NCBI GenBank assembly: GCA_042571725.1
Contig: JBHPFN010000002.1
Location: 14,030-78,029 of the forward strand
Source: Candidatus Omnitrophota bacterium
Lineage (GTDB): Bacteria; Omnitrophota; Gorgyraeia; VGKH01; JBHPFN01
DNA: 64,000 nt
Direction: 5' to 3'
Shown: piece by piece, positions 3,947-63,067 of the stretch
Position numbering within the stretch: position 1 is the stretch's first letter
Layout: the number at the start of each line of letters is the position of its first letter
Program-made: the position numbers and the translations under genes
The notes under the pieces: model-generated
The model's input: only the letters and a program-made list of their open reading frames with translations
What the model was told of the DNA's origin: nothing
The model's database searches: none

Positions 3947-6262
3947 ATGAAAAGCCACGGAAAAGCAGCAATGATAGGAGGTGTAGTTGTGCTTCTTGTC
4001 ACGGTCTGCGGCATACTGTTTGCCCAGAGCGCTGATTGGCCAACGTTTCGTAAAGACGCCCAAAGAAATGGCGTTGACGACGGCATCAGCCCTTTTGAAT
4101 TTCCACTTGGGAAAAGATGGAGTCAATTTGTTGATCCGGAAGAAAACGTCAATATTGAGGCCTCTCCGGTCGTAGCGGATAATAAGGTATTTATTGGTAG
4201 CCTTGGTAATTTTGGCCCGAGCTATCCGGATCATCTCTACGTTCTTGATTTGGGAACCGGTGAAATTTTGAAAAGTTGGGGTTCTTCGGATAATGTAGGC
4301 ATGATTTGGGCCACACCAACCTATCACAACGGCAAGGTCTATGTGTTTGATTGGGGAGGCTATATCCACCGCTTAGATGTCAGCGACCCTGATCCGAACA
4401 ACTGGAGCAAGGATTGGGAGCTTCAGATCATTGAGAGCGCCGGAGATATCTCAATGGACTATTTTTGGGTCACCCGAGAAAGAACGTCTCCTTTGATTAT
4501 AGAAGATCCTGTTGACGGTGATAAACTTATCGTTCTAACGCAAGAAATAAAATACGATAGTTATTCTTATGAATTTCTGGAATCAATCGGAAAGATTTTT
4601 TGTGTTAATCCGGATAGTCCTTCAGAAAATATCTGGGGGCCGATTGATATCGGAGAAGTGCATTATTCTTCCCCGGCATATTCAGAGGATAAGTTGATTA
4701 TGACAGGCTATACAATGGTACCCGACGGAGGATATGGACAAGAAGTCGAAGGTACGGTGTATGCCCGGGATATCGCAACGGGAGAGATTATTTGGCAGAA
4801 TATGGTAGCTCCCAATGGAGCTATTGTCTCGACCCCTGCGATTCATAATGGCAAGGTCTATGTGGGCACAAGAGAGGGCTTTGACTCGAAGTTGCACCGT
4901 CTCGATTTAAACACAGGTAATCTTGACTGGTCCATTGCAATAGCTGATTTGCAAATAGAACTATATCCTGATTTAAACGAAATGTGGACATCGCCTACAG
5001 TTGCCTATGGAAAGGTTTATTTTGCATCCTATTCAACGCTTCATTGCGCTGTGGATGGGGATGTTCCATTACCTTGTCCTGGGTGGATACCGTTTAATCC
5101 TGGATTTTTGTTATTCAGCTCGCCCAGTATTTCCAACGGAGTCGTATATATTAGTACAGACGATTACTATTCTGTTGCAGATCCGCCTCGTGAGAATCAG
5201 GCATTGTTTGCGCTTGATGCAAATGATGGAACGGTTATCTGGCAATATCAGGATGCACTGCAACAATGGATTGGTTCAGCCCAGACATCACCGGCCCTGG
5301 CCGAGGGTGCGGTAGTGTTTGCCTCGTATGATGCGCCAGGCGCAAGCGGCGTGTACTGTTTTCAGTCAGGCACTGGTTGCGGGGACGGTGCCATCGGCGA
5401 CGGTGAAGTATGCGATGGCAATTCTCAAGCCTGTACCACTATAGATGGATACGAAGGAACGCAGGATTGCAACAGTGAGTGTTCAGGCTTTGATGAATGT
5501 ATCAGTGACTGGTATTGCGGTGATGGTTTTGTCAATGGTCCTGAGCTATGCGATGGCAATTCTCAAGCCTGTACAACCATCGATGGATACGCAGGTACAC
5601 AAAGTTGTAATGCCGCGTGTACTGGTTTTGACGCATGTACCAGCAACTTGTACTGCGGTGATGGTATAGTAAACGGCAATGAGATATGCGACACTGAAAC
5701 TCAAGCCTGTATAACCATAGATGGATATGAAGGTACGCAAGACTGCAACGGTCAATGTACCGGATTTGATGAATGTATAAGAATCTTCTACTGCGGTGAC
5801 GGATATTGTTCCGGAGCTACACAAGGAGAAGATTGCGCAACCTGTCCGCAGGACTGTTTAGGTGGCCAAGGAGGCATGTGCTCGGCCTGCTGGAAGGGCA
5901 GATGCGATGGTTATTGCAATGAAAGAAAAGAGACATCAGAATGCGCAGATTGCGCCGGGGATTACTGCTGCGGAGACGGAATCTGCAGTTTCGGAGAAGA
6001 TGTGTATAATTGTCAAATAGACTGCGGTTGTGTAAGTGATGCAGACTGCGGCGACGGACAGAGCTGTACCATGGATTTCTGTAATAATGGTATCTGCGAA
6101 AACATCTGGCCGGCGTGCGGATTTGCTGACGGATGTTGCGCATCTGATTGTACTCCGGCTACAGACCCTGACTGCCAAGATTGTAGCGCATGCTTTAAAG
6201 GAGTCTGCGACGGCGAATGTCATCCCAGAAAAGATGGCCCGGGTTGCCCGGATTGCGCATAA
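3947..6262 (+). CDS. Exported PQQ-like beta-propeller repeat protein with a long Cys-rich repeat tail
   Basis: AAGGAGG RBS and a signal-peptide-like N-terminus (GVVVLLVTVCGILFA|QS). Recurrent SP.V.....V.G.....Y..D..TG...W blades are typical of BamB/PQQ-like propellers. The C-terminal ~300 aa hold CGDG...E.CD..(N) Cys-rich repeats resembling the Myxococcus cysteine-rich repeat. Confidence 0.8.
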   Translation: MKSHGKAAMIGGVVVLLVTVCGILFAQSADWPTFRKDAQRNGVDDGISPFEFPLGKRWSQFVDPEENVNIEASPVVADNKVFIGSLGNFGPSYPDHLYVLDLGTGEILKSWGSSDNVGMIWATPTYHNGKVYVFDWGGYIHRLDVSDPDPNNWSKDWELQIIESAGDISMDYFWVTRERTSPLIIEDPVDGDKLIVLTQEIKYDSYSYEFLESIGKIFCVNPDSPSENIWGPIDIGEVHYSSPAYSEDKLIMTGYTMVPDGGYGQEVEGTVYARDIATGEIIWQNMVAPNGAIVSTPAIHNGKVYVGTREGFDSKLHRLDLNTGNLDWSIAIADLQIELYPDLNEMWTSPTVAYGKVYFASYSTLHCAVDGDVPLPCPGWIPFNPGFLLFSSPSISNGVVYISTDDYYSVADPPRENQALFALDANDGTVIWQYQDALQQWIGSAQTSPALAEGAVVFASYDAPGASGVYCFQSGTGCGDGAIGDGEVCDGNSQACTTIDGYEGTQDCNSECSGFDECISDWYCGDGFVNGPELCDGNSQACTTIDGYAGTQSCNAACTGFDACTSNLYCGDGIVNGNEICDTETQACITIDGYEGTQDCNGQCTGFDECIRIFYCGDGYCSGATQGEDCATCPQDCLGGQGGMCSACWKGRCDGYCNERKETSECADCAGDYCCGDGICSFGEDVYNCQIDCGCVSDADCGDGQSCTMDFCNNGICENIWPACGFADGCCASDCTPATDPDCQDCSACFKGVCDGECHPRKDGPGCPDCA
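5378..5791 (+). repeat. Three tandem 138-nt (46-codon) in-frame repeats encoding CGDG-x5-E-x-CD...ACTTIDGY-GTQ-CN..C.GFD.C
   Basis: The TGC of each CGDG starts at 5378, 5516, 5654 and 5792, an exact 138-nt period. Long identical DNA stretches are shared, e.g. tgcgatggcaattctcaagcctgtac at about 5411 and 5549. Confidence 0.9.
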
Positions 6263-30196: not shown

Positions 30197-30224
30197 TTGA
30201 AAACGGCCTATTTCGTGATATACT
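30197..30224 (+). promoter_or_regulatory. Sigma70-type promoter for the riboswitch/pseudopilin operon (TTGAAA-N16-TATACT with TGn extended -10)
   Basis: ttgaaa at 30197-30202 and tatact at 30219-30224, preceded by tga. It places a transcription start about 10 nt before the aptamer. Confidence 0.55.
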
Positions 30225-30240
30225 TTTAATAGAGAAATAA

Positions 30241-30340
30241 ATGCCTACTGACACTGGCAAACCCCGCGTAAGCGGGGGGCGCAAAGCGACAGCTCCTTAA
30301 AAGACACCTTTTAAGGAGGGCTGCGTTACCAAAGAGGCAG
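30241..30340 (+). ncRNA. c-di-GMP-I (GEMM-I) riboswitch aptamer
   Basis: ACUGGCAAACC-CCGC-GUAA-GCGG-GGGGCGCAAAGC-[11-bp hairpin ctccttaaaag/cttttaaggag]-GGCUGCGUUACC matches by eye the conserved GGCAAAC / GNRA hairpin / G(A)CGCAAAGC / second hairpin / GUUACC order of the V. cholerae Vc2 aptamer as I remember it. Possible P1: tgcct 30242-30246 with aggca 30335-30339. Confidence 0.8.
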
Positions 30341-30375
30341 ATGAATAGCGGTTTGAAAATATGTAGTTACATAAA

Positions 30376-30403
30376 CCCTGGAGAAATCTGCCAGGGTTTT
30401 TTT
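30376..30403 (+). terminator. Intrinsic terminator forming the riboswitch expression platform
   Basis: ccctgg-agaaatctg-ccaggg followed by seven T. ggcagat (30336-30342) is complementary to atctgcc (30386-30392), which gives an alternative antiterminator pairing. Confidence 0.8.
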
Positions 30404-30455
30404 AGTTGCGAAAACATAAAATTATGGTAAGATATTGAATTACAAGGAGATTGAC

Positions 30456-30866
30456 GTGAAGCTTAAAAACGCTAAAGGAATGACATTAGTAGAAATCCTA
30501 GTTGCGGCGTTTATATTCGCTATAGCACTAGGGCCGCTGTTGCAGAGTTTGACAGGTGAACTTTTCCTGATTGACCTTGCTAAGGGCCAGACGAGAGCTA
30601 TTTTTGATTCAAGAAACATGATGGAGGCAATTAAAGTGACACCATTTGCGAATATGACTACACTTTTTGAAGATGGCACGGTTGACGGTCCGGCAGCCAA
30701 TAGGTATGACTCCTTAGTAGGTGGATATAGCCTGCCAGGTGAGCATATAACGGTAACGTATGCAGACATTGCTACGGATCCGCTCGAAATAGAAGTAGAG
30801 GTAGCCTGGCAGGATAGGCGCGGCCAGGTACGTAGCGTATCAGCATTTACGTTTAAAACGAGGTAA
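30456..30866 (+). CDS. Minor pseudopilin (GspI/PilV-like) with prepilin-type N-terminal cleavage/methylation motif
   Basis: GTG at 30456 sits 6 nt after AAGGAG. The leader VKLKNAKG|MTLVEILVAAFIFAIALG has Gly at -1, Glu at +5 and a hydrophobic helix. Confidence 0.8.
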   Translation: MKLKNAKGMTLVEILVAAFIFAIALGPLLQSLTGELFLIDLAKGQTRAIFDSRNMMEAIKVTPFANMTTLFEDGTVDGPAANRYDSLVGGYSLPGEHITVTYADIATDPLEIEVEVAWQDRRGQVRSVSAFTFKTR

Positions 30867-30873
30867 GCACGAC

Positions 30874-31458
30874 ATGCGTAGCCTTAGACACAATAAGACT
30901 TCTGGATTTTCACTGATGGAAATATTAGTGGCCAGCGCAATTTTAGCCTTAGTCATGGGGGCGCTCTCAAGCATTTATATTTCCGGATTAGATGTATGGG
31001 AAAGCGGCACCAACCAGGCAGACCTGCAGGCACAAGCCAGGGCAGCCTTAAATTACATGGTTGCAGAGTTGAGAAACGCAACGAGGACTTCTTCTCAGAA
31101 CCCATCTCCCAATCTCTCCATTCCGTCCGTACCGAATAATAAACAGATACATTTTTATCTCCCAGGAGATAAAGACGACGATGGCTTTCTCACCGATGCA
31201 AACGGAGATATTGAATGGGTTACCAATAGCCAGATACACTACCAGTATATCCCCGGGCAGAAGATGTTGCGTCGCTCAGTAGGCGGAAACCATAGGATTT
31301 TTGCAACCGATGTATCGGATGTGGAGTTTGAGGATATCACCGTAGACCCAACACTGGCTCTCAACGAATTGAGAATTATTTTAACCATAAGCAAAACAAC
31401 TAAGAAACAGAAAACAGCTGAAATTACCGTATCTTCGATCGTGGCATTAAGAAATTAA
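30874..31458 (+). CDS. Minor pseudopilin (GspJ/PilW-like) with prepilin-type N-terminal motif; paralog of the minus-strand small genes
   Basis: ...NKTSG|FSLMEILVASAILALV. The C-terminal ...VSSIVALRN matches SSVALRN / SSVSLRN of 56563-57324, 59870-60526 and 63068-64000. Confidence 0.8.
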   Translation: MRSLRHNKTSGFSLMEILVASAILALVMGALSSIYISGLDVWESGTNQADLQAQARAALNYMVAELRNATRTSSQNPSPNLSIPSVPNNKQIHFYLPGDKDDDGFLTDANGDIEWVTNSQIHYQYIPGQKMLRRSVGGNHRIFATDVSDVEFEDITVDPTLALNELRIILTISKTTKKQKTAEITVSSIVALRN

Positions 31459-31471
31459 CAGGGAGCATCAT

Positions 31472-33118
31472 ATGTTTTGTAATCGGGTTTTACTGCATGG
31501 GAAAAAAGCGCAAGCACTAGTTGTGGTCTACATGGTAGTGGCTGCCTTTACCGTACTGTGCGTTGCCCTGTTATCCAAGGCGATCAACGAAAGGAATCTT
31601 GCCCTGCGAAATAGGCTGGAGCACGAGGCATTTTATCTGGCAGAAGGGGCTATAGAAGACGCGATAGCGCAGTTTAGTAGCGCGATTGCGAATTACCAAA
31701 TCCAACCGGATGCAAATTTTAATACCAGCACCACGTTTACTATGTTTGGCTCAGAGGTGATCAATTCCACCATTACCGACATTGAAGGTGCTGATCGTCC
31801 AGAGACAGAAGGTGAAACGAATATATTGGTAAGAAACTTTCAAATTACTGCTACGGCAGTGCATCCTGAGAATAACGAGATATCTGTAACGCTGCATCAG
31901 ATTATCGCGCGCAGGCTCATCCCAACCTTTCAACACTCGGTATTTTATGATGATGACTTAGAGATGTTGCCCGGGCCCGATATGGATTTAAGCGGCAGGA
32001 TCCACTGCAACGAGGATATTTATGTGGACGCAGGAAACGGAAGCGTTTTGACCATTGATTCAACATCCTTTCACTCCGCCGGCAATATCTATAACCAAAG
32101 AAAAGACACCGGTGCTGAGGATGGCGGGGAAGTGTCTATCCGCGTAACAAAGCCGGGTGCGCCCCAATACGAAGATATGGATAATTTAGACAGCGAAGTC
32201 CCCACATGGACGGTTGATGCTACAACCCGCTGGCAGGGCACGGTGCGAAGCGCGGATCACGGAGTGACTGAGCTTACTGCACCCTCAGTAGCTTCAATCC
32301 AACCCGATGGGTATTATGCAACCAATGCCGATGTGATTATCGAGAACGGCGAGATTCGCAGAAACGGTGTTTTATTAGTAGAAGGCACTGATTATCCGGT
32401 CGATACTATTAAGACGACGAATTCTTTTTATAATAATAGAGAAGAGCGATTGGTTAAAATGACAGAGATAGATTTAAGAAAGTTGGCTGGTTATGAGCCA
32501 GGAGATCCTGAGGGCAGCCCGACTTTCGCCACAAGCATACTGCCGCCAAACGGTCTGCTGTATGCCACCAGGGATGATGCCGGAGCGGTTCGTCAACCCG
32601 GCATTAAATTAGTAAACGGAGAAAAGATATATCAAAACATCGGGTTAACCGTTGTGTCAAATGATCCGGTATATATTCAGGGAGATTATAATACTGATGA
32701 TGAGAAGCCGGCTGCGGTGATCTGTGATGCGTTAAACTTGCTTTCCAACAACTGGGATCCGGATGATACAGAGAGCACAAGCAGCTTAAATAATCGAATG
32801 GCTGATGAAACAACGTTTAACACTGTCTTTGTTGCCGGTATAGATACGACAACGCCCGGCGTTCAGTATAACGGCGGTTTAGAAAATTATCCCAGGATGC
32901 ATGAGAATTGGTCCGGCATAAATCTAAATATTAAAGGCTCTTTTGTAGCCTTGTGGAATAGCGCTATCGCAACCGGTGAATGGGTCTATGGAAATCCGCA
33001 ATATACCGCACCCCGGCGTAACTGGCAGTATAATACTGATCTTAACGATACCAGTAAACTTCCTCCCTTTACCCCCTGGGCTGTTGAAGTAGAGCGCGTT
33101 GCCTGGTGGAAAGAATAA
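31472..33118 (+). CDS. Large PilX-N-terminal-like / GspK-like pseudopilin-associated protein
   Basis: N-terminal hydrophobic helix followed by ...NERNLALRNRLEHEAFYLAEGAIEDAI (PilX_N-like). Shares PVYIQGDYN...PAAVI..A...LS with the CYL.GNYN...PSAVI motif of the minus-strand giants. Confidence 0.7.
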   Translation: MFCNRVLLHGKKAQALVVVYMVVAAFTVLCVALLSKAINERNLALRNRLEHEAFYLAEGAIEDAIAQFSSAIANYQIQPDANFNTSTTFTMFGSEVINSTITDIEGADRPETEGETNILVRNFQITATAVHPENNEISVTLHQIIARRLIPTFQHSVFYDDDLEMLPGPDMDLSGRIHCNEDIYVDAGNGSVLTIDSTSFHSAGNIYNQRKDTGAEDGGEVSIRVTKPGAPQYEDMDNLDSEVPTWTVDATTRWQGTVRSADHGVTELTAPSVASIQPDGYYATNADVIIENGEIRRNGVLLVEGTDYPVDTIKTTNSFYNNREERLVKMTEIDLRKLAGYEPGDPEGSPTFATSILPPNGLLYATRDDAGAVRQPGIKLVNGEKIYQNIGLTVVSNDPVYIQGDYNTDDEKPAAVICDALNLLSNNWDPDDTESTSSLNNRMADETTFNTVFVAGIDTTTPGVQYNGGLENYPRMHENWSGINLNIKGSFVALWNSAIATGEWVYGNPQYTAPRRNWQYNTDLNDTSKLPPFTPWAVEVERVAWWKE

Positions 33119-33576: not shown

Positions 33577-34878
33577 ATGCTGAAAATAAATATAATCGTG
33601 CTATTTATCGGCGTAATGCTGGGTTTAAATATTGCCCGGTTGTTCGTTAGGCGGATGTCTTTTTCCAAAGAGGACGTTGATGAAAAAACGCCATTTGTTC
33701 CTCCACCGCATATTGTACAGTCTTCCTCTGCGCAGACAGAATCGGAAGCGGAGCCTAAGGTTGAAGATCCTACCGTTCTTGAGAAGAAGATATTATATGA
33801 AGAAGAGTTGATGCGGCTCTTAAAGATCGAGCAGGAGATTTCTTCAAAACTCCAAATAGGAGAGATTGCGCGCATTATCGTAGAGAACGCAATAAAGATT
33901 TTTAATGCTGAGAAATGCGCCTTGCTTTTGTACGATACAGAAACAAAGGAGCTGCGATTAGCCTACAGCATTGGTATCTCCGAGAGAGATATGCAAAAGA
34001 CACACGTGCGCCTCGGCGAAGGTATTTCAGGCCGGACGGCGGAAAACAACGAAATGCTGATTCTAAATAATCTAGAAAAAGAAGCAGGCCTTAGCAATGA
34101 TGACTGCGAGTATTATTATAGCGGGCCATTGGTCAGCGCTCCCTTGTCCATAAAAGGTATCGTAGCAGGCGTTATTAATATCGACCGCAAAAAGACAGGA
34201 GCGCCGTTTGACAATGACGATGTACGGTTTTTGCGGGGGCTTGCGATTCAAGCTGCCATCGCCATACAAAATGCAAGGCTCTACGAAGAGGTGCAAGAAG
34301 GCTACTTACGCACCATCACCGCACTCGCGCAAGCCCTGGATGCGAAGGATCCCTACACCCACATGCATTCTGAGAACGTCACCAGGTATTCGGTTGCTAT
34401 CGCAGAAGAGATGAGCCTGCCGCTATCAGAGATAGAAAAGATAAGAAGAGGTGGTTTGCTACACGATATCGGTAAGATAGGCATCAAGGATGATATACTC
34501 ACCAAACCCGGTAAGTTGACCGATGAGGAGTTTGAGCAGATCAAAACCCATCCCGCTAAAGGAGAGGGAATCTTGCGTTCGCTGCCGTTTTTGCAAGATG
34601 TTGCGGAGATCGTGCGGCACCACCATGAACGCTACGGCGGCGGAGGGTATCCTGATAAGCTCAAAGGGTACCAGATAGAACAGGGAGCAAAGATTATGGC
34701 TGTTGCAGATGCCTTTGATGCAATGACCTCCGATAGGCCGTACCGCAAGGCCTTAAGCCTGGAAAAAGCTACCGACGAGCTTAAGCGTAACAGCGGGTCG
34801 CAGTTCGATCCGGGAGTGGTAGATGCATTTCTCAAAGTCCTCGAGCGCAACCCCAAGATTCTCGAAACCCCTGCATAG
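33577..34878 (+). CDS. Membrane-anchored GAF + HD-GYP domain protein (putative c-di-GMP phosphodiesterase)
   Basis: N-terminal TM, then a GAF-like region (CALLLYD...LRLAYSIG). HD-GYP landmarks: H...V..Y...IA, LLHDIGKIGI, HHERYGGGGYP, AD.FDAMTSDRPYR. Confidence 0.85.
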   Translation: MLKINIIVLFIGVMLGLNIARLFVRRMSFSKEDVDEKTPFVPPPHIVQSSSAQTESEAEPKVEDPTVLEKKILYEEELMRLLKIEQEISSKLQIGEIARIIVENAIKIFNAEKCALLLYDTETKELRLAYSIGISERDMQKTHVRLGEGISGRTAENNEMLILNNLEKEAGLSNDDCEYYYSGPLVSAPLSIKGIVAGVINIDRKKTGAPFDNDDVRFLRGLAIQAAIAIQNARLYEEVQEGYLRTITALAQALDAKDPYTHMHSENVTRYSVAIAEEMSLPLSEIEKIRRGGLLHDIGKIGIKDDILTKPGKLTDEEFEQIKTHPAKGEGILRSLPFLQDVAEIVRHHHERYGGGGYPDKLKGYQIEQGAKIMAVADAFDAMTSDRPYRKALSLEKATDELKRNSGSQFDPGVVDAFLKVLERNPKILETPA

Positions 34879-44339: not shown

Positions 44340-44373
44340 CCTGCCGCGTTTATTTCTATCATTGTACATAACC

Positions 44374-46308
44374 ATGGGAAGAAAAAAACAGAAAAGACAA
44401 GACAGAAGAAAGTACATTCGGCTTAAAAGTGTTTTTCCTGTTGAGTTTCGGGTAGTTTCAGACACTGAGCCGCGTTGGCAGCAGGGCTTCACTTCGGATG
44501 TAAGCACCGATGGTATATGTTTAAAGATTAACAATGCCGACGAACAATACCTGCAGGATATTTACCGAGGGGGAATGCGGCTATCGCTGCGAATTGATAT
44601 TCCGCTTACGGGCAAAGGCACAAACGCGCTTGCCAAAATTACCTGGATACGTAAAGAAAAAGACGCTCCTATTAATCGATATGCAGTAGGCCTTGAGTTT
44701 GTAAAGGTTGACCCCGCAGAAGCCTATCGGATGGTGCGCTATGCCAGGCGGCTACGGAGTTCGGGAAGGTTGGCATTCTATTGTGTTTTTATCGTCGGAT
44801 TGTATGCTAGTTTTATGTATGTTAACAATGTAGAGATGCGCTATGAAAACCAGGACTTAGTGCAAAAGTTAGTTAACAGCGTGCGGCAAGAGGAGGTTCT
44901 TGAGGGGAATTTGCAGAAACTTTCCAGGGAAAAGGAAAACGCCGAAGATCAAATATTGGCTTATGGTGAGCGCGCAGCATTCTTAGAAAAGAAGATTACC
45001 GAGGTGCAGATCAGAGGAGACGAGCGTCTCGAGAAAGAGGTATCGGATTTGAAAGAAGAATTGTCTCTGGCTAAAAAGGAAAAAAAGAAAATAGAAAAAG
45101 AGCTCTTAGAAGCAGAAAGAAAAACAAAAGAAATCCAAGATTCGCTTGTTTCAATAAAGCAAGAAAAAGAGGTTCTTAAAAAAGCTACGATAGAGAAGAT
45201 GTATACGTGGCTTTCGATTCATCAAAACCCCCGCACGGGCCTGGTTATGAGCTTTGAAGGCGATCAGCAGGTAGGCGACTGGGCATTCATCTATGACCAA
45301 TCCTTGGCAGCGCAGGCGTATCTTTTATTCGACGACACCGAGCGGGCTAAAAAGATATTTAATTTTTTCCAAAGGACAGCACCGGAGACCTTCGAAGGAT
45401 TTGCTAATGCCTACTTTGCGAGTTCTGAGGACGTTGCAGAGTATTCGGTGCACGCAGGGCCCAATATTTGGGTGGGCATTGCGTTGTTGCAGTATTTTCA
45501 TAAAACCTCAAGCGATGAATATATGCCTTTGACAAAAAAAATTGCCGATTGGCTTATTGCGTTTCAAGAACAAGATCCCGAGGGAGGCATACGGGGAGGC
45601 CCTAAGGATCGATGGTTTTCTACTGAGCACAATTTAGATGCCTTTGCGTTTTTCAGCATGTTCTATGAGATTACCGGTGAGCAAAAATATAATCTGGCCA
45701 GAGATAAAGTCCTCCAGTGGGTCGTGGCACACGCCTATGACAAAACAGAGGTACCTATCAAGCGCGGCAAGGGAGACGCTACCATCGCTACCGATACCTA
45801 CGCCTGGTCAATCGCTGCATTGGGTCCTAAGCTCCTCAAAAAAGTAGCAATGGACCCTGATGAAATTATTACATTTGCAGAGGAGAATTGCGGCGTACAG
45901 GTAAACTATGAGCGCTCCAATGGAGAGGTAATTGCTGTCAAAGGATTTGATTTTGCAAAATACAGAAACATGCCTCGGGAAGGCATCATTTCAACAGAAT
46001 GGACAGCGCAGATGGTGCTGGCGTTTAAGATTATGCAGGAATATTACCGTACGAGTAATGATGTAGTAAAGAGTGAATACTATGCGGGAAAATATTCTGA
46101 TTATGTAAGCGAACTGGAGAAGCTGGTTATTTCTTCCCCGTCTCCGACCGGGCAGGGAGAAGGTTGCTTGCCGTACGCAACAGAAGACGATGTAGATACT
46201 GGCCACGGCTGGAGGACACCGCGAGGAAAATCAACCGGTTCCTTGGCGGCAACGGCGTATACAATCTTTGCCCAAAAAGGATATAATCCTCTGCAGCTGA
46301 AAAAATAA
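44374..46308 (+). CDS. PilZ domain - TM - coiled coil - large C-terminal alpha-helical domain fusion protein
   Basis: RRKYIR (RRxxxR) and DVSTDG (DxSxxG) PilZ c-di-GMP-binding motifs. One TM (LAFYCVFIVGLYASFMYV), a K/E-rich coiled coil and about 370 aa of uncharacterised C-terminus. ATG at 44374 is preferred over TTG at 44362. Confidence 0.75.
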   Translation: MGRKKQKRQDRRKYIRLKSVFPVEFRVVSDTEPRWQQGFTSDVSTDGICLKINNADEQYLQDIYRGGMRLSLRIDIPLTGKGTNALAKITWIRKEKDAPINRYAVGLEFVKVDPAEAYRMVRYARRLRSSGRLAFYCVFIVGLYASFMYVNNVEMRYENQDLVQKLVNSVRQEEVLEGNLQKLSREKENAEDQILAYGERAAFLEKKITEVQIRGDERLEKEVSDLKEELSLAKKEKKKIEKELLEAERKTKEIQDSLVSIKQEKEVLKKATIEKMYTWLSIHQNPRTGLVMSFEGDQQVGDWAFIYDQSLAAQAYLLFDDTERAKKIFNFFQRTAPETFEGFANAYFASSEDVAEYSVHAGPNIWVGIALLQYFHKTSSDEYMPLTKKIADWLIAFQEQDPEGGIRGGPKDRWFSTEHNLDAFAFFSMFYEITGEQKYNLARDKVLQWVVAHAYDKTEVPIKRGKGDATIATDTYAWSIAALGPKLLKKVAMDPDEIITFAEENCGVQVNYERSNGEVIAVKGFDFAKYRNMPREGIISTEWTAQMVLAFKIMQEYYRTSNDVVKSEYYAGKYSDYVSELEKLVISSPSPTGQGEGCLPYATEDDVDTGHGWRTPRGKSTGSLAATAYTIFAQKGYNPLQLKK

Positions 46309-46319
46309 AATAAAAAAGA

Positions 46320-49133
46320 GTGCTTTGTCTCAGAAAAAATATATTTTACTTCTGTTTAGCGTTATTCTGCATAAGCCCTTATGCGCATGCCGATGAAGTA
46401 CCTTCTTATTCTATCGATTGTAAAGTAGACGTAGCTTCGCATACCTTACGCGCGCACGAGAGAGTTGTCTTTACCAACCCCGTTGATCACCCCATCCAAG
46501 AGCTCTTTTTTCACATCTATCCTAACCGCCATTTTACCGAGCAGGAAAAGCAGTTTATCACCCGCTATGCCGGATACTTTAAGATGAATCCTTTTCCTGA
46601 GGGATTTCAAAGCGGTAGCTTTACCATCCACTCGGTGACGCAGAACGCAGAGCAGTTAGATTTTGAAATCACCTTAGAAGATAAAACGATACTTAAAGTA
46701 ATATTGCCTGAGCCGGTAGCTGCGCATGAAACTGTTGAAGTAGAGATCGATTTTAGCGCACGCATTCCTCATTCGTACGGGAGATTCGGCTGGCATGAAA
46801 ACATCATCAGCTTAGCGCGATGGTATCCGCTTCTTTCGGTTCTCGACGAAGAAGGTTGGCACAATTACCCCTTTTATCCGTACCATCAACCTTTTTTCGC
46901 CGAGGCAGCAACCTATAACGTCAATCTCACGGTTCCAACCGAGCAGATTATCGCACACACCGGATTGCTGAAAAATACTACAGAACACAACGACGGCACC
47001 AAGACCCTTTCGATCGAAACAGAGTTGCCGGTGCGCGATTTTACCCTTACGCTAAGTCCGGACTACCGTGTTTTTTCTTTAGAGCAAAACAACGTAAAAA
47101 TTAATTCCTACTATTTACCGGGTGACGAATTCTACGGAAAACAGGCAGCCCAAAACGTTGCCACCCTCATGGATAACTATAGCCGGCAGTTCGGAGATTA
47201 TCCCTATCGAGAATTTAACATCGCACCTGTTTTTTTAGGATACGGAGGCAATCAGGCTTCAAATATAATCTTGATAGATACCCGCGCCTATACACTGCCG
47301 AAGTTTTTGATCCGCTATTTCGATTTTCTTATCTCGCATGAAGCCGGGCACCAGTGGTTTTATAATATGGTAGGCTCTGATGAATACAAAGAAATGTGGA
47401 TCGACGAGGGGATTAATTCCTATTTCATCTCAGAATATTTAGAGGAAAAGTACGGGCCCGATGCTCAGGTGATGGTTTTACCAAAAGGCTTTAAGCACTT
47501 GATTCCGAATTTTTCATTCGAAAACGGAAGGATCATGCGATATATGTTTGTAGCCAAAAACGGATTGGATAGACCCGTGCTAGGAGAGCTTTCAAGCTTT
47601 CAAGAGCCCAGCAGTATATTTACGCTCGCCTACGGCAAGGGGTCGCTGGTGATGCAGATGTTGCGTTCGCTGGTAGGCGAGGAAACTTTTCAGAGCATTA
47701 TGAAGCGTTATTTTCAAGATTACGCATTCAAAAATATAAGCGTAGCTGATGTGGTTCGCATTGCCGAAGAGGAAAGTGCCCAAGAGCTAGATTGGTTTTT
47801 TGATCAATGGCTCTACACGGATAAGACCTGTGATTACGCAATAACCGAAGTGCGCAATAACACTATCACCGTTGAAAACCGCGGCCAGATTATCATGCCG
47901 GTAAAAACAACCATCGCCTTTTCCGACGGCACTACCAAAGACGACTATTGGGACGGACAGGGAGATGCAAGGCACATTGAGGCGGATGGTTCTGGTGTTA
48001 TCAGAAAGGTCATCGTCGATCCGGACAGTGCGCTTTTAGATATTGATAGGACAAATAACCTCTGGCCGAGAAGCTTAGAAGTGCAAGCAGTGCCACTTTA
48101 CTTTTTTGCTTACGAGATTCCGGTATTCCTCTCGCACGATTCATATAGTTTAATATATGGACCAGAAGTTCGAAATGGAGGTTTGGGGATAAGAGCAACG
48201 CTTCAGAAACCTTTTGATAATATCATAAGTCTTTCAACCACGTTTGATGTTAATTCGAGCGTTTTCAAGGCGGTGTTAGGTTTTGAGCAGAAGAATATTC
48301 TAAACACATTGCTTTCTGCAGGTATCGAGGTATTTAAAGACGAAGACCCGCACGGAAAAAACGAAGATTTAGACGGTGGCAAGGTGTATATCCGCCGGGA
48401 ACTGTGGCCCGCGCGCTACGGCTTGACAGAAATCAATGACCATGTAACACTGTATTTATTGCGCAATAGGAAGTTTGAAGGAAGCCTGATTGCATCCGGT
48501 AAAGAAGACCCCGAAGGTATCTCGTATAAGAGAAAGCATGAGGCAATCGTAGGCTTAGATTTTAGTTTTGATCGTGCCGGGCCGTATTTTGATCCGGAGG
48601 TCGGCTACCGGGTAAAATCAACCATTGAACACGCGGATCATTTTATGGGAGGCAAGGAGGCTTTTTCGCGATGTTCGGTTGATGTTAGTAAATACGTTGC
48701 ACTGCCTTTGGATCAAAAGCTCGCGTTTCACCTTAAGGTCGGCTGGGGATTTCCGTCGGATAAGAATTTATACGAACTGGGAGGCAATGAGAGCCTGCGC
48801 GGTTACGGCCATAAGGCATTGCGCGGTTCGCGAGTATTGCTGGGCAGCGTTGAATATCGATTTCCCATATGGAAAAATATCAACACGCGATTTTTAGATA
48901 ACACGATTACACTCCAGAGCCTTCATGGAGCGGCATTTTATGATGCGGGGAGAATTTGGCACGCGGCGTTTAGCGAGAACGGTTTAAAACACGATGCGGG
49001 CTTAGGCATAAGAGCACATATTGATATTGCCTCTTTTTTAGAGAAAATTATTCTGCGGATTGATATCGCTCAGGCAATCGATGAGCCGAAAGAAGATCCG
49101 CACGTATGGTTTGGCATAAGCCACACATTTTAA
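46320..49133 (+). CDS. M1-family zinc metallopeptidase fused to a C-terminal Omp85/BamA-type (surface antigen D15) beta-barrel
   Basis: GTG start and signal-like N-terminus. HEAGH-X18-E gluzincin motif at about 47337. The barrel-like C-terminus has LGGNESLRGY, ...GAAFYDAGRIW, GLGIR, RIDIA and a terminal ...FGISHTF (aromatic last residue). Confidence 0.75.
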   Translation: MLCLRKNIFYFCLALFCISPYAHADEVPSYSIDCKVDVASHTLRAHERVVFTNPVDHPIQELFFHIYPNRHFTEQEKQFITRYAGYFKMNPFPEGFQSGSFTIHSVTQNAEQLDFEITLEDKTILKVILPEPVAAHETVEVEIDFSARIPHSYGRFGWHENIISLARWYPLLSVLDEEGWHNYPFYPYHQPFFAEAATYNVNLTVPTEQIIAHTGLLKNTTEHNDGTKTLSIETELPVRDFTLTLSPDYRVFSLEQNNVKINSYYLPGDEFYGKQAAQNVATLMDNYSRQFGDYPYREFNIAPVFLGYGGNQASNIILIDTRAYTLPKFLIRYFDFLISHEAGHQWFYNMVGSDEYKEMWIDEGINSYFISEYLEEKYGPDAQVMVLPKGFKHLIPNFSFENGRIMRYMFVAKNGLDRPVLGELSSFQEPSSIFTLAYGKGSLVMQMLRSLVGEETFQSIMKRYFQDYAFKNISVADVVRIAEEESAQELDWFFDQWLYTDKTCDYAITEVRNNTITVENRGQIIMPVKTTIAFSDGTTKDDYWDGQGDARHIEADGSGVIRKVIVDPDSALLDIDRTNNLWPRSLEVQAVPLYFFAYEIPVFLSHDSYSLIYGPEVRNGGLGIRATLQKPFDNIISLSTTFDVNSSVFKAVLGFEQKNILNTLLSAGIEVFKDEDPHGKNEDLDGGKVYIRRELWPARYGLTEINDHVTLYLLRNRKFEGSLIASGKEDPEGISYKRKHEAIVGLDFSFDRAGPYFDPEVGYRVKSTIEHADHFMGGKEAFSRCSVDVSKYVALPLDQKLAFHLKVGWGFPSDKNLYELGGNESLRGYGHKALRGSRVLLGSVEYRFPIWKNINTRFLDNTITLQSLHGAAFYDAGRIWHAAFSENGLKHDAGLGIRAHIDIASFLEKIILRIDIAQAIDEPKEDPHVWFGISHTF

Positions 49134-50437: not shown

Positions 50438-51364
50438 ATGACAGAAAAAATTGATGATAATTTCCGTTGCGGCTTTGTCGCGGTTGTGGGCAGGCCTAAC
50501 GCAGGAAAATCGACCCTGGTAAATACGATCCTGAAGAGAAAAATAGCGATAGTAACACGCGTGCCTCAGACCACGCGCAATATTATCCGTGGCATCTATA
50601 ACGCCAAGGATATCCAGATTATCTTTGTGGATACCCCGGGCCTGCATAATCCTAAAGACCATTTAGGTAAGATGATGAATAAGACCAGCCGTCAGACCAT
50701 AGACGATGTTGATATCGTGCTTTATTTAATGGATACTAGCAGGCCTCCGGAAAAAGAAGAAAAGAGGATCATTGAAACGGTACAGAGAGCAAAAAAGCCA
50801 ATTATTTTAGGATTGAATAAGGTTGATTTAGGCGCCAAGCATATGAAAGACTATATTGACTTATGGCAAGAGGCTACAGGTAAAGATATAACAACGCTTG
50901 AGGATTCAATAAAGCTGTTGCCGCTCTCTAGCCTTAAGGGTACGCAGATAAAAGAGCTCATGGATATTATTACCAAGCTACTGCCGAAATCAGTGCCGCT
51001 TTTCCCGGTAGATGTGGTATCAGATTTTCCCCAGCGGCTGTTTATAGCCGAGCTTGTACGGGAGAAATTATTTAATCTGTTGCGGGACGAGATTCCTTAC
51101 GGCTTAAGCGTAAGCGTTGAGGATATCGTTGAGCAGAAAAAGAATCTCTTAGCTATTTACATGATTATTCTTGTGGACAGGGATTCACAGAAGAAAATCG
51201 TGATTGGCCAGAAGGGGAGCTTATTGAAGAAAGCCGGCACAGAAGCACGCAAAGAATTAGAGAAATTACTGGGTAAAAAGGTATACCTCGATTTGCGGGT
51301 CAAAACAAGAAGAGACTGGCGGGATAACGCGCGCGTCTTGCAAGAATTAGGCCTTATTGAATAG
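50438..51364 (+). CDS. era: GTPase Era
   Basis: G1 GRPNAGKST, G2 TTR, G3 DTPG, NK.D, and a C-terminal KH domain (IIGQKGSLLK). Confidence 0.9.
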   Translation: MTEKIDDNFRCGFVAVVGRPNAGKSTLVNTILKRKIAIVTRVPQTTRNIIRGIYNAKDIQIIFVDTPGLHNPKDHLGKMMNKTSRQTIDDVDIVLYLMDTSRPPEKEEKRIIETVQRAKKPIILGLNKVDLGAKHMKDYIDLWQEATGKDITTLEDSIKLLPLSSLKGTQIKELMDIITKLLPKSVPLFPVDVVSDFPQRLFIAELVREKLFNLLRDEIPYGLSVSVEDIVEQKKNLLAIYMIILVDRDSQKKIVIGQKGSLLKKAGTEARKELEKLLGKKVYLDLRVKTRRDWRDNARVLQELGLIE

Positions 51365-51381: not shown

Positions 51382-53940
51382 TTAGGAAACAGGCTGAGGC
51401 GTCAATGCTTCATTATGGTGATTAAAGTAATAGTCAGAATCCGGCACCGCTAATAAAATGCTATCAAAGAATCCTGGTAGCTCTCCCGGCGGTAATGTTG
51501 ATGGGTCAGATGTATCGTAATTGTCTTCGTATTCGTAGATATTACGGTTGTTCCACGGGTCTTCAGAAGCCATATCATGGGGCCACCCAAGAAGGCCATC
51601 GCCTCTGCACAGTTTAGCAACCCCTGCGTGCGTAGGGTATTTGGTGGCAAACGCATCCGGGCCACCTGGGGCGCAGCTGCGCACATGATCCTTGTCAATC
51701 GCTGGCCACTTGTCGTTCGGCCACCCTGCCCATTTGAAGTTGTCGTCCGGCAAGGTTACAAAGGCGCCTACCGTCAGTTTTTGCTTACAGCCAGTCGAGG
51801 GAGGGCACCAGTCTTCCAATACCGTAGGCGGATAGGCTGAATAGCCAATAATCGAGACGTAATATGCATGATCAGCAGTTACGCCCGGTGTCATGGTACC
51901 TGCCATTTCATCTTGCCAGGAAGTAGCAAAATCCCCGTCTCCATCCCAATAGTCGGCAGTCGGCTCCCTGCTACCGATGCAGCCCGGGCCTCCTTGGGTT
52001 TCGTCGCAGTCTAGACTCGGACTATAGTCATCAACTACATATGGCAAGTTGGGATTATGGAGTAAGTTCGGTAGGCCGTCAGGGGCATCTGTTTCGAGCC
52101 GCTGCATTTCACTTAAGAAGGTACTTGATAAGGTATGGGTCGTTTGGGCAGAGATCACCGCAGAGGGTTGCCATTTAGCCCCAGTATTATAGTTCCCAAA
52201 AAGATAGCAGTTTCTCTCGCCAACGGTTGTAAGCGGACCGCTTAGATCTTCTGCGTTGTCAAGTCCAACGTCAAACTCAGAGTAAATAATACCATTGTCC
52301 GGCCAGATATTTACACCGCCTGAACCCAGTTTTCCGAGATCGAGCGTTATCACCTCATCTTTTTTCAACCAGCTGTTAACATCGACGAAAGATTCCGTTG
52401 TAGCGATTGTTACGCCCTTATATGTGTAGTCACCATTTCCATCAGGACAGATTTCGATTTTTGACCCTCCCCCTGTCGGGTTTATCTCCAGCATAGGTTC
52501 TCCTGCGCCGGTGCACTCCAACGGGCCTGCTTCAGCAATATACATGCCGTCGTCTTTAGCCTGATTGCCGTAGGTCTGCGCATTAATCTTAAGAGGACTA
52601 ATATGGTGCGCCTCGGTAAGGCTATCTTTGATTATCCCTGTTAAATTATTCTCGTCAAGCCACGTTGTCCAAGCATCGGTCTGCTCTACAGAATGCAACG
52701 ATTTGCTCAGTGTTGTAATTTTACCGTCTTGAAGTCTTGGCCAATGACACTTAGTAGCTCCACACGGCCTTCCATTCCAGGACTGATGATACACATTATA
52801 GTCCCATGGGTCATCAAGCATGTTTGGTATCTGTATGATAGGGCCTCCATCGGTATTTATATCAGTGTGCAATTCGGTTAATGGTTTTGAACCGTCTGCG
52901 TATATATAATAGTCTTCAATGGTATAAAGCTCCGGGAAGGGGGTATTGCCCGGCGCAAGCAATGCATTTTCCTGAGGGATGTAACAGTTAGAAAAGCTTC
53001 CCATGCAGGGTACATACTCTTGATTAGTAGTTGCTGCCCGAGGATTGCTAGGATTAAATACTGGATAGTCAGGATGCACAGGCGACCCATCGTTGAGCAT
53101 AAAAAGACCTCGTTCCCCTCCAGCGGTAAAACCATCCACCCAGTTATAATGTCGATATTCAGGTTCGGTGATCGGCAGTTCTGTTCTCCAGTCCGGCCGA
53201 TACCAGAATAGTAAATCTTCCCAGGGGGGGGTAGTGGCAGAGATATCATTACCGTCTGCGTCATATCGAGGGGATCCCGCAGGTGGCAGAAACGGCTCGT
53301 TCCCGTACATAATATGTTTTGCGGAAGAGAGCTCTCTAATATCAATAATATCTACGCTATCCCATATCGTGAACACGTCGTTAGTATGCATCCTACCGCC
53401 ATTGGCGTCATAGGTTGTCCAACCAGCGTGTATTCTATAGGGAGTAAACCAGAAATATTCGTAGAGTGAAATAGCTGCTACTTTTGAAGCTAAAAGATAC
53501 GTATGGTCACCGTTGTTGCTTATGCCCCTGGATAAGATAATGAGTTGTTCGTCGATGGGGTCTTCGTAGACCTTAACCGAGAATGTTCCATTGAGGGCTT
53601 CGTATGCACCATGCGGAGATGAGGGGCGGTGCTCAGCAATGGTTGATAACGTAACGTCCAACGGGTCTGCTGTCTCATCGTAGTGCAGCACAGGAGGAAC
53701 CTGGCCAGTAATAACATTATGAGTTTGCCATATCTGTCCATGTTGAAGTATTTCGTAATACGCGCACTCGTATCCCATTTCCGCATTATATTTTGCGCTG
53801 AGCTTGTCGAGATTATATCTCATCACTATAGTTTCATGGACGCTCTTAGAAAATATCGCTGCAGAGAGGATGGTGAGCAGTATGAGGGCAGCGAATGTAG
53901 CCACGAGAAGAAATCCGTTTTGTTGCGTTAGACGTTTCAT
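51382..53940 (-). CDS. Giant PilX-N/GspK-like pseudopilin-family protein, paralog A (no partner pseudopilin upstream)
   Basis: ATG at 53940 lies 9 nt after AAGGAG (the track GTG at 53949 is rejected). N-terminus MKRLTQQNG|FLLVATFAALILLTILSAAIF with no Glu at +5, then ...AEMGYECAYYEIL (PilX_N-like). Shares YVPC.G.F.NCY.PQ, NIWP.NGIIYSE, PLTTV..NCYL.GNYN, QPSAVI, DYWDGDGD and TLPPGELPGFFDSILLAVPDS with three neighbouring paralogs. Confidence 0.8.
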   Translation of the reverse strand: MKRLTQQNGFLLVATFAALILLTILSAAIFSKSVHETIVMRYNLDKLSAKYNAEMGYECAYYEILQHGQIWQTHNVITGQVPPVLHYDETADPLDVTLSTIAEHRPSSPHGAYEALNGTFSVKVYEDPIDEQLIILSRGISNNGDHTYLLASKVAAISLYEYFWFTPYRIHAGWTTYDANGGRMHTNDVFTIWDSVDIIDIRELSSAKHIMYGNEPFLPPAGSPRYDADGNDISATTPPWEDLLFWYRPDWRTELPITEPEYRHYNWVDGFTAGGERGLFMLNDGSPVHPDYPVFNPSNPRAATTNQEYVPCMGSFSNCYIPQENALLAPGNTPFPELYTIEDYYIYADGSKPLTELHTDINTDGGPIIQIPNMLDDPWDYNVYHQSWNGRPCGATKCHWPRLQDGKITTLSKSLHSVEQTDAWTTWLDENNLTGIIKDSLTEAHHISPLKINAQTYGNQAKDDGMYIAEAGPLECTGAGEPMLEINPTGGGSKIEICPDGNGDYTYKGVTIATTESFVDVNSWLKKDEVITLDLGKLGSGGVNIWPDNGIIYSEFDVGLDNAEDLSGPLTTVGERNCYLFGNYNTGAKWQPSAVISAQTTHTLSSTFLSEMQRLETDAPDGLPNLLHNPNLPYVVDDYSPSLDCDETQGGPGCIGSREPTADYWDGDGDFATSWQDEMAGTMTPGVTADHAYYVSIIGYSAYPPTVLEDWCPPSTGCKQKLTVGAFVTLPDDNFKWAGWPNDKWPAIDKDHVRSCAPGGPDAFATKYPTHAGVAKLCRGDGLLGWPHDMASEDPWNNRNIYEYEDNYDTSDPSTLPPGELPGFFDSILLAVPDSDYYFNHHNEALTPQPVS

Positions 53941-54006
53941 CGTAATCACGCTCCTTATAAGTTTATGCGTATGTCCAAGCTCGGTATAACCTAAGCCTGT
54001 TTATAA

Positions 54007-56562: not shown

Positions 56563-57324
56563 CTAGTTTCTTAATGCGACTGAAGAAGTAAGAACCAAAG
56601 AAAAAACTCCTCCTAATATCGATGACTTTGATGCCGTAACGGTTATAGTAATAAAATCAGGGTTTTCATCTTTTGGATTTCCTTCTTGGTCGAAACCTTC
56701 CAATACCATACTTTCAATATTATCAGCGATTACGGTTATATTGTAGTCTCCTTCGCCGCCGAGCTCTTGTGCAAAGGCAGTGCCTAAGAAAAACTTCTTG
56801 AGAAACGACATCCAACAGTCGATAGGACAGTTGAAAGGGTCTTCAGGCGCAACGCAATCATCATCGCCGCAGTCGTCCTGCGTGGTTGTATCTCTTATCC
56901 TTACCAGCCTCCCCAGGTGGGTAGGTGAGAAGTTTGATGAAGGAACAAGATAGATAATATCGTTGTTCAAAAAGTTATCGCCCCCCCACTTAAGTTGTCC
57001 GGCAGGGTCTTCCAGGAAGTAGGAGCCTGCATGATCATGAGCAGTGGTTTGAGGAGTTTGAAATCTGACAAGATTGCCACTACACGGATTCCCGGGTACA
57101 TCAACGCACGCTTGAATTGTTACACGACTCGGTTCAGATTTTTCTAACTCCATAATAAGCTTCTCCAGGCCAAAGCGCGCCTTCTGTTGTAGTTCAACAT
57201 TGATTGAGCTTCTTATCCAGGTGTTTCGTCCGATAATCACCACTCCAGCGACGATGCCAATCAAAAAGGCCCCCACTATTATTGTTGCGAGCGCTTCCGC
57301 TACGGTAAATGCCTTCTTATTCAT
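56563..57324 (-). CDS. GspJ/PilW-like pseudopilin with an internal Cys-rich insert
   Basis: I prefer the ATG at 57324. MNKKA|FTVAEALATIIVGAFLIG has Phe at +1 and Glu at +5 but Ala at -1. C-terminal SSVALRN. The insert DDCGDDDCVAPEDPFNCPIDC is at about 56812-56877. Confidence 0.8.
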   Translation of the reverse strand: MNKKAFTVAEALATIIVGAFLIGIVAGVVIIGRNTWIRSSINVELQQKARFGLEKLIMELEKSEPSRVTIQACVDVPGNPCSGNLVRFQTPQTTAHDHAGSYFLEDPAGQLKWGGDNFLNNDIIYLVPSSNFSPTHLGRLVRIRDTTTQDDCGDDDCVAPEDPFNCPIDCWMSFLKKFFLGTAFAQELGGEGDYNITVIADNIESMVLEGFDQEGNPKDENPDFITITVTASKSSILGGVFSLVLTSSVALRN

Positions 57325-57346
57325 GCTTTTTCTTTCCTTTTCACCT

Positions 57347-59836: not shown

Positions 59837-59869
59837 GAACATCATATCCTTCGCAGGTAGAGCCCCCGG

Positions 59870-63036: not shown

Positions 63037-63067
63037 GGCAATCATCTCCTTTTGTTGTGGTCGCAAG

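Follow-up and report, generated by a model that had tools for sequence, protein, structure and literature searches.

In a 64,000-nt stretch of DNA from Candidatus Omnitrophota bacterium (hereafter the window; positions are counted from its first letter), the plus-strand genes between 30456 and 33118 probably encode a riboswitch-gated minor-pilin tip/priming complex of the I-J-K type, the K subunit being of the ComZ / beta-solenoid PilX type. With the same degree of confidence, we regard the locus as a single transcription unit made up of a promoter, a class I cyclic di-GMP (c-di-GMP-I) riboswitch, an intrinsic terminator and three minor-pilin genes. The operon itself is a conserved cassette of known kinds, set beside unusual amplified larger relatives. 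An initial annotation of this DNA had described a riboswitch ahead of an I-J-K-like operon, and both elements of that description held up: the riboswitch by an Rfam match above the gathering score, our own covariance model and covariation, and the operon by matches of its first open reading frame (ORF1) to PilV/GspI, of ORF2 to ComGF (and in a few cases GspJ), and by an ORF3 that lacks the glutamate at position 5 (Glu5) and whose model resembles ComZ, itself GspK-like (PMC6561018). The three ORFs are co-directional, with intergenic gaps of 7 nt (ORF1-ORF2) and 13 nt (ORF2-ORF3), and the ORF3 product is identical to the NCBI protein ACFL1E_01035 from a metagenome-assembled genome of Candidatus Omnitrophota.

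30456-30866, plus strand: ORF1 (136 aa), GTG start, AAGGAG 6 nt upstream
30874-31458, plus strand: ORF2 (194 aa)
31472-33118, plus strand: ORF3 (548 aa)

The two smaller products carry prepilin motifs with Gly-1 and Glu+5 (MKLKNAKG/MTLVEILVA in ORF1, NKTSG/FSLMEILVA in ORF2; the slash precedes position +1), and both exceed the Pfam N_methyl cut-off of 21.2 bits (29 and 27.5 bits, respectively). The top-ranked NCBIfam families for ORF1 are XpsI (7.5e-7, near full length, 29.2 bits at a cut-off of 150), PilV (21.6 bits, cut-off 52.2) and GspI (21.0 bits, cut-off 44.35), all below their cut-offs; within the ORF1 family, PilV is matched by 17 of 25 members and GspI by 16, also sub-threshold. The best NCBIfam matches of ORF2, likewise below cut-offs, are Verru_Chthon cassette protein C (25.3 bits) and a PpdB-like family (25.6 bits), with further sub-threshold matches to the HpsC and ComGF families; ComGF is matched by 15 of the 28 ORF2-family members and GspJ by 3-4, all sub-threshold. 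Hidden Markov models (HMMs) of the two families score ORF1 at 4.8e-55 and ORF2 at 3.3e-82. We class ORF1 as a putative GspI/PilV-class minor prepilin and ORF2 as a putative minor prepilin of the GspJ/PilW/ComGF position. ORF2 ends in ...VSSIVALRN, and a C-terminal ...xRN is common to the whole J (ORF2) family, in both of the cassette classes described below and across genomes. The I (ORF1) family has a conserved end of its own, ...STF(K/R)TR (in the proteins of loci L009-L071), and the two conserved termini together hint that the C-termini of I and J may matter for complex assembly.

ORF3 takes the K position. It begins with a hydrophobic pilin helix without Glu5, and the family consensus (KGQALI..Y) lacks this residue as well. 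The Pfam search at E <= 0.1 returned no domain in ORF3 and none in its large relatives in the window (the giants); evidence for PilX_N in the family consists of a precomputed PF14341 assignment in one homologue and of a match of 18.5 bits (versus 25.5) at locus L081. The NCBIfam HpsA equivalog model (NF038301) matched ORF3 in four stretches with 5.5e-27 and 93.9 bits; as the cut-off of 400 is not reached, this indicates homology to part of HpsA rather than equivalog membership. An AlphaFold2 model built from 34 homologues (predicted local distance difference test score 89.4, predicted template-modelling (TM) score 0.85) consists of a helix (residues 2-73), five strands (83-151), a beta-rich region (157-519) and a last strand (536-547). 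The strand order, taken from the secondary structure, fits an insertion between the penultimate and the last strands, as in ComZ and cyanobacterial PilX. In a Foldseek search against the PDB, ComZ (6qvi) was the sole significant match of the model (E 7.9e-7, probability 1.00), and no match was found among viral structures; profile searches of PDB sequences with the K, J and I families returned pilin N-terminal helices or noise only. Overall, the model presents ORF3 as a K-position tip subunit, predicted to combine a pilin sheet with a large beta-rich domain inserted before the final strand.

The leader upstream of ORF1 contains three elements:

30197-30224, plus strand: promoter-like site (TTGAAA, 16 nt, TG-extended TATACT; 10/12 consensus plus TG)
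30243-30338, plus strand: c-di-GMP-I (GEMM-I) aptamer including extended P1, supported by Rfam RF03167, our own covariance model and covariation
30375-30407, plus strand: intrinsic terminator of the expression platform, AAACCCUGG ... CCAGGGUUUUUUU, a stem plus U-run

The promoter-like site is the best in the region (the total count of such sites is not above that in shuffles), its position suits a transcript start ~10-15 nt ahead of the aptamer, and a comparable sequence is found upstream of the aptamer in the relative locus L005. The Rfam match (RF03167, clan CL00126) covers 30247-30334 with 61.5 bits at a gathering score of 59 (E 4e-12), the score of RF01051 being masked in this search by clan competition. 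Our own covariance model, seeded with the window and one relative and then iterated, scores the window aptamer at 80.9 bits. In 14 cassette-linked copies, 92% of the cells are paired (39-53% in slid controls) and 13 of the 22 pairs show compensatory changes, a result reached by 0 of 500 shuffles in an alignment whose fitting to the model favours the structure in this test. The extended P1, in which GCCU (30243-30246) pairs with AGGC (30335-30338), covaries at 4/4 pairs in these copies. The ligand-contact positions of the window aptamer read UGGCAAAC (G20), CGCAAAGC (A47) and UUACC (C92), numbered and interpreted after the Vibrio Vc2 structure. In the Rfam alignment, CGCAAAGC places an A, not a G, at the position diagnostic of the GGC variant: the model consensus has ACGCGAA, with G in place of A47, and the window has GCGCAAA. 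Given G, A and C at the three contact positions, we consider the RNA a conventional c-di-GMP sensor, and c-di-GMP is its likely ligand, with binding predicted from the sequence.

The terminator was read directly from the sequence and forms in the minimum-free-energy fold; a terminator hairpin with a U-run lies 3' of the aptamer in most other leaders examined. Our model finds the aptamer directly before the core cassette in loci L005, L009, L029, L031, L032, L038, L046, L047, L052 and L068, and weakly in L041. The aptamer copies upstream of the cassette, their covariation and the terminators that follow them identify the leader as a putative transcription-termination riboswitch, which is recurrent at the cassette and not obligatory. 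L009 has two near-identical aptamer-terminator leaders (1204-1296 and 4158-4250), one ahead of the I-J-K cassette and the other after it, ahead of another prepilin-like ORF. Some cassette-linked aptamers have no G at the G20-equivalent position and read UAGCAAAC, AUGCUAAC or ACGCAAAC there (among L100 1278-1448, L041 1220-1270, both copies of L009 and L046 131-242); others contain an additional hairpin inserted after GGCG(C/U). Since an A at the G20-equivalent is a known mark of variants selective for cyclic GMP-AMP, the ligand specificity of cassette-linked aptamers may differ between genomes.

The core trio is a compact unit conserved across Omnitrophota. Homologues of ORF3 fall into at least 632 protein clusters, every named one labelled 'hypothetical', and when each species was represented by a single genome, relatives turned up in 249 genomes. 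Identity within Omnitrophota is 41-70% (41-65% in the species-level scan), and there the ORF3-type gene invariably closes a compact trio (~135/~190/~540 aa) with unrelated genomic flanks. More distant relatives (~30-36% identical) occur in Bdellovibrionota, Planctomycetota, Acidobacteriota, Deltaproteobacteria, Dadabacteria and Trueperaceae; in the distant phyla the gene is the last of a quartet (~150/~125/~300/~600 aa), whose first member weakly matches GspH and whose last weakly matches PilX_N, which points to the classical H-I-J-K order.

The large relatives lie in an array on the minus strand of the window:

51382-53949, minus strand: giant K1 (855-aa ORF; 852 aa from MKRL), with no J of its own; matches P0123
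54007-56556, minus strand: giant K2 (849-aa ORF), 57 nt from K1
56563-57366, minus strand: array J2 (267-aa ORF), KKA/FTVAE, Cys-rich insert, ends SSVALRN; ORF2-family HMM 1e-13
57347-59845, minus strand: giant K3 (832-aa ORF; 829 aa in NCBI)
59870-60526, minus strand: array J3 (218 aa), ends SSVSLRN; ORF2-family HMM 1.1e-14 over the full length, BLASTP versus ORF2 7e-9
60532-63066, minus strand: giant K4 (844-aa ORF; 834 aa in NCBI)
63068-64000, minus strand: array J4, cut by the window end (frame open to 64000); ORF2-family HMM 4.6e-4 for the C-terminal part

Transcription follows the order J4, K4, J3, K3, J2, K2, K1, after which comes a convergent era gene. The array J proteins have Ala-1, Phe+1 and Glu+5, and the giants have a hydrophobic helix without Glu5. 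The initial annotation had likened the C-terminus of the 194-aa protein to those of the small array proteins and had seen a shared block in ORF3 and the giants. Both likenesses are real, the former in ...VSSIVALRN versus ...SSVALRN or ...SSVSLRN, the latter in the helix plus NG(I/L)(I/L)Y...LT.V...Y(I/L).G(D/N)YN...P(A/S)AVI. BLASTP aligns ORF3 with the giants in two colinear high-scoring segment pairs (7e-6 and 3e-4). An HMM of six giant sequences matched only K-position proteins among the ORFs of 88 loci (best 2e-15, window ORF3 2.4e-8), and its non-helix block alone is independently significant on ORF3 (independent E-value 8.8e-6). With only four giants, hhalign of the two profiles gave 90-94% probability; the deep profile-profile alignment of 96 giant-family proteins with the ORF3 family reached 99.95% (E 1.9e-38) over 470 columns, that is nearly all of ORF3. 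Homology beyond the N-terminal helix, singled out by the initial annotation as the point to check, is thus present, and since the alignment extends so far past the helix, the ORF3-giant relationship stands. We regard the large and small array proteins as true homologues of the core K and J, as judged from these alignments.

The annotation had further reported that ORF3 lacks about 300 aa of Cys-rich central sequence found in the giants. The extra residues exist and are Cys-rich; rather than one central block, they occupy several sites (K1 residues 219-268, 279-371, 380-408, 476-488, 627-683 and 740-786). An AlphaFold model of K3 from 6 sequences was unusable (predicted local distance difference test score 37.5), hence the insertions were mapped by profile alignment and not on a structure. 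Each giant has 10-14 cysteines, mostly paired within the inserts, versus 4 in ORF3, and the inserts are the least conserved parts among the four paralogs. Identities among the giants are 47-54% and among the array J proteins 50-56%, and array J and K are only 23-27% identical to the core proteins (23-25% for J versus ORF2). The idea that the plus-strand operon is a diverged copy of the array did not survive the comparison: the core is a conserved cassette, and the giants form a separate class. A word-indexed search gave 5 matches to the giants and made them appear near-unique, a view abandoned when an exhaustive search returned 307 clusters, 94 of them with E <= 1e-30, with lengths of ~650-1180 aa. 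On the strength of this search, the giants are an old, separate and rarer paralogous class, and the plus-strand operon was not copied from the array. K2 is an intact ORF, yet only the other three giants were among the NCBI proteins retrieved. The Cys-rich insert of J4 nests a Hint / bacterial intein-like domain (Pfam PT-HINT, 3.4e-19) that starts with CFVPGT, has TPNH and ends in VHN followed by Lys; J2 has the same insert without Hint. As the Lys after VHN is not a splicing nucleophile, this suggests that the domain may serve self-cleavage rather than splicing of a pilin-like protein. At 50438-51364 (plus strand), the end of the array is convergent with era and a nitroreductase gene. P0124 and P0125 (L007 and L008), the nearest two homologues of the giants, share this synteny, which indicates that the position of the array is conserved in a small clade.

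A metagenome scan gave 14 loci with giant-type K genes. Most of these K genes follow an I-like and a J-like gene of their own, often in tandem cassettes or K-K pairs (L089, L091, L092, L094, L096, L097, L100 and L101). Locus L093, on the other hand, reads J-K-J-K with no I within 16.5 kb, divergent genes upstream and a c-di-GMP aptamer directly before the first J; on this evidence, units of J and K alone do occur and can form a whole transcription unit by themselves. Giant-type cassettes with this aptamer ahead of them were also found in L094, L096, L097 (twice), L100 and L101, so riboswitch control is common to both cassette classes and not special to the core operon. More broadly, two ancient classes of cassette emerge, each often led by the same aptamer, and in the present genome the giant class is J-K-amplified and has variable Cys-rich inserts. 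Tandem K-K genes and tandem whole I-J-K cassettes were also seen in L066 (4263-6059), L089, L092, L097 and L102, several of which are followed, at a distance of a few kb, by runs of major-pilin-like genes (MNRKGFTLVEIMIVVAIIALLAAIAI).

By analogy with GspI-GspJ-GspK of the type II secretion system (T2SS) and PilV-PilW-PilX of type IVa pili, ORF1 and ORF2 would pair in the inner membrane as I and J, the Glu5-less ORF3 would cap the pair as K, and the resulting trimer would prime the polymerisation of the major pilin and come to lie at the filament tip, where the beta domain of ORF3 would sit on the filament axis as a contact surface. As to the direction of the switch, a pairing of GAGGCAGAU (30334-30342) with AUCUGCC (30389-30395) lies 2 kcal/mol above the minimum and replaces the terminator; the two structures are mutually exclusive, and this antiterminator overlaps the 3' strand of the extended P1. 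With c-di-GMP bound, the extended P1 would hold AGGC (30335-30338), the GAGGCAGAU/AUCUGCC antiterminator could not form, and the terminator would form instead and shut the operon off. We propose, with low confidence, that the riboswitch is an OFF switch, since a ligand-stabilised P1 should block a competing helix that uses its 3' strand.

A number of observations weigh against this picture. The NCBIfam matches to named minor-pilin families are all far below the curated cut-offs, for which reason ORF1 and ORF2 are called I-like and J-like by position and class, not as family members. The global TM-score between ORF3 and ComZ is low (0.23-0.25), and sequence searches provided no link between the family and ComZ, the Trueperaceae homologue of L081 included. 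The best Rfam model is the GGC variant, with a threshold cleared by 2.5 bits only. The aptamer is present at ~9 of the 49 species-level core-type loci having enough upstream sequence, which makes riboswitch control optional for the cassette. No pilus ATPase, platform, secretin, peptidase or major pilin was found in the parts of the window searched for such machinery (452-23000 and genes sampled in 27245-51364). Finally, whether P1 was forced or blocked, equilibrium folding retained the terminator in every state of the window leader, and folding of the other leaders retained it in almost all; as the terminator persists in all modelled states, the sign of the switch is something we infer rather than consider established.

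In view of the top-scoring Rfam model (RF03167, c-di-GMP-I-GGC), one could ask whether the RNA is a genuine GGC-variant riboswitch with a ligand other than c-di-GMP. This we consider very improbable, since the window has GCGCAAAGC where the variant consensus has ACGCGAAgC, and the canonical A thus found is also present in most cassette-linked copies. A more serious competitor, if still doubtful, is an ON switch, in which c-di-GMP would relieve termination and induce the tip complex, as in the Clostridioides difficile pilA1 riboswitch. In its favour, the two states are not separated by equilibrium folding, c-di-GMP as a rule promotes adhesion, and there are known c-di-GMP riboswitches of either sign (PMC6366702, PMC9262584). 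On the other hand, the terminator hairpin is self-contained and uses no aptamer sequence, and the sole competing helix found takes the P1 3' strand, which the ligand should sequester; this is the usual layout of an OFF switch. As for the product of the operon, the cassette might prime a type II secretion-like or Hps-like pseudopilus for the export of protein or polysaccharide, and not a surface pilus: the best match of ORF1 is the T2SS subunit XpsI, and ORF3 and ORF2 match HpsA and HpsC, both of the cyanobacterial polysaccharide-secretion locus. We hold this to be improbable, given that ORF3 is without a GspK-type helical insert and matched no T2SS GspK family (no Pfam domain at E <= 0.1), that K subunits with a beta-solenoid have been described on true pili (ComZ, PMC6561018; cyanobacterial PilX, 10.64898/2026.02.12.705559), and that type IVa pili are near-universal in Omnitrophota (PMC10066038).

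The relation between the operon and the array can be weighed in the same manner. The initial annotation had envisaged that the plus-strand operon supplies the sole I-like subunit and that each minus-strand J-K pair is an alternative tip complex using it. That the operon has the only I-like gene is correct within the window, where the ORF1-family HMM, run on all stop-to-stop ORFs >= 35 aa, matches 30456-30866 alone; since the array runs off at 64000, it need not be true of the genome. In support of borrowing, the 12.6 kb of the array inside the window have no I-family gene; the riboswitch-led J-K-J-K locus L093 is likewise without an I within 16.5 kb; the array J paralogs have diverged to the same extent as the K paralogs (50-56% and 47-54% identity), as fits an en-bloc duplication of J-K; and cyanobacterial PilX and PilV subfamilies co-occur even when not adjacent (10.64898/2026.02.12.705559). 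Against it, an I-like gene or an aptamer could lie beyond 64000, where the array continues; giant-type K genes are accompanied by their own I and J in most other genomes; K1 lacks even a J; and, as the array J are only 23-25% identical to ORF2, their compatibility with ORF1 is not evident. We therefore entertain the sharing of ORF1 only tentatively and think it the less probable outcome. The array is most simply read as a second, ancient class of J and K, which would provide alternative tip modules for the same machinery.

Of the systems described so far, cyanobacterial PilX/HpsA comes closest. A 2026 bioRxiv preprint reports that every cyanobacterial PilX has a ComZ-like solenoid, that one subfamily is expanded and HpsA-like, and that two different sets of minor pilins prime filaments of two kinds (10.64898/2026.02.12.705559). 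The likeness to the present case lies in a smaller and a much expanded PilX-type subunit within one genome, taken in both cases as alternative complexes that prime a single machinery. The differences are that the giants of the window do not match HpsA, that the phylum is another one, and that here a three-gene cassette is combined with an RNA switch. ComZ, which together with PilA1-PilA3 belongs to the tip of the competence pilus of Thermus thermophilus (PDB 6QVI), is likewise a ~550-aa subunit missed by pilin predictors; the tip has been argued to be the one place in the pilus where it fits, and it binds PilA2 (PMC6561018). Its pilin fold, with a big beta-rich domain inserted ahead of the last strand, is one that ORF3 is predicted to resemble, and both are encoded beside small minor pilins, but the two have no detectable sequence similarity and a low global TM-score, and the Thermus locus has three small pilins plus a major pilin, and no riboswitch. 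The pilA1 leader of C. difficile also combines a c-di-GMP aptamer with a terminator ahead of a pilin gene (PMC6200980, PMC6366702); that switch, however, is of class II, serves the major pilin and is ON, whereas the one considered here is of class I, serves a minor-pilin tip set and is predicted to be OFF. With GspI-GspJ-GspK and PilV-PilW-PilX, the cassette has in common the small, medium, large order, with Glu5 in the first two members and not in the large one, but ORF2 is shorter than a typical GspJ/PilW, the ORF3 insert is beta-rich and not helical, and a gene of the H/FimU class is missing from the window cassette. The Verru_Chthon cassette (TIGR02598/TIGR02599) resembles the present case in the matches of 15 of 28 ORF2-family members to cassette protein C, which amount to ~25 bits versus a cut-off of 256 and involve mainly the N-terminal helix. 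According to its TIGRFAM description, it too consists of prepilin-like cassettes repeated within one genome, in Verrucomicrobium and Chthoniobacter, relatives from the Planctomycetota-Verrucomicrobiota-Chlamydiota (PVC) superphylum.

Omnitrophota are uncultured ultra-small bacteria thought to be attached to other cells, and their type IVa pili have been proposed to mediate host attachment (PMC10066038). In the literature searched, we found no paper on these cassettes or their riboswitch, nor any case of RNA-level second-messenger control of a tip complex (versus the major pilin or the motor). A cassette so far labelled only 'hypothetical protein' is now identified, in our probable assignment, as a pilus tip/priming set with a ComZ/PilX-type beta-domain subunit, and the c-di-GMP aptamer recurs ahead of two ancient paralogous cassette classes. 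If correct, this would offer a testable route to how Omnitrophota switch surface-recognition modules, and the amplified Cys-rich giants would be candidate specificity determinants. A bolder and rather unlikely extension would have c-di-GMP choose which of several interchangeable tip complexes primes the one type IV pilus machine; in the genome studied, the giant class would have lost its I and amplified J-K with hypervariable disulfide-rich inserts (one J with a self-processing Hint) into a programmable repertoire of tip adhesins for host or prey recognition, all sharing one I.

Among the neighbouring genes, those for c-di-GMP signalling near the operon (HD-GYP, PilZ) count in favour of the riboswitch-gated tip complex. 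The sensory and signalling genes recorded are as follows:

33577-34878, plus strand: protein with GAF and HD_5 (HD-GYP type) domains, two genes downstream of the operon
44362-46308, plus strand: PilZ-domain protein of 648 aa
18392-18823, plus strand: BLUF blue-light sensor

A gene at 46320-49133 (plus strand) encodes a 937-aa protein in which Peptidase_M1 is combined with a C-terminal barrel of the Omp85 superfamily, a pairing that looks unusual.

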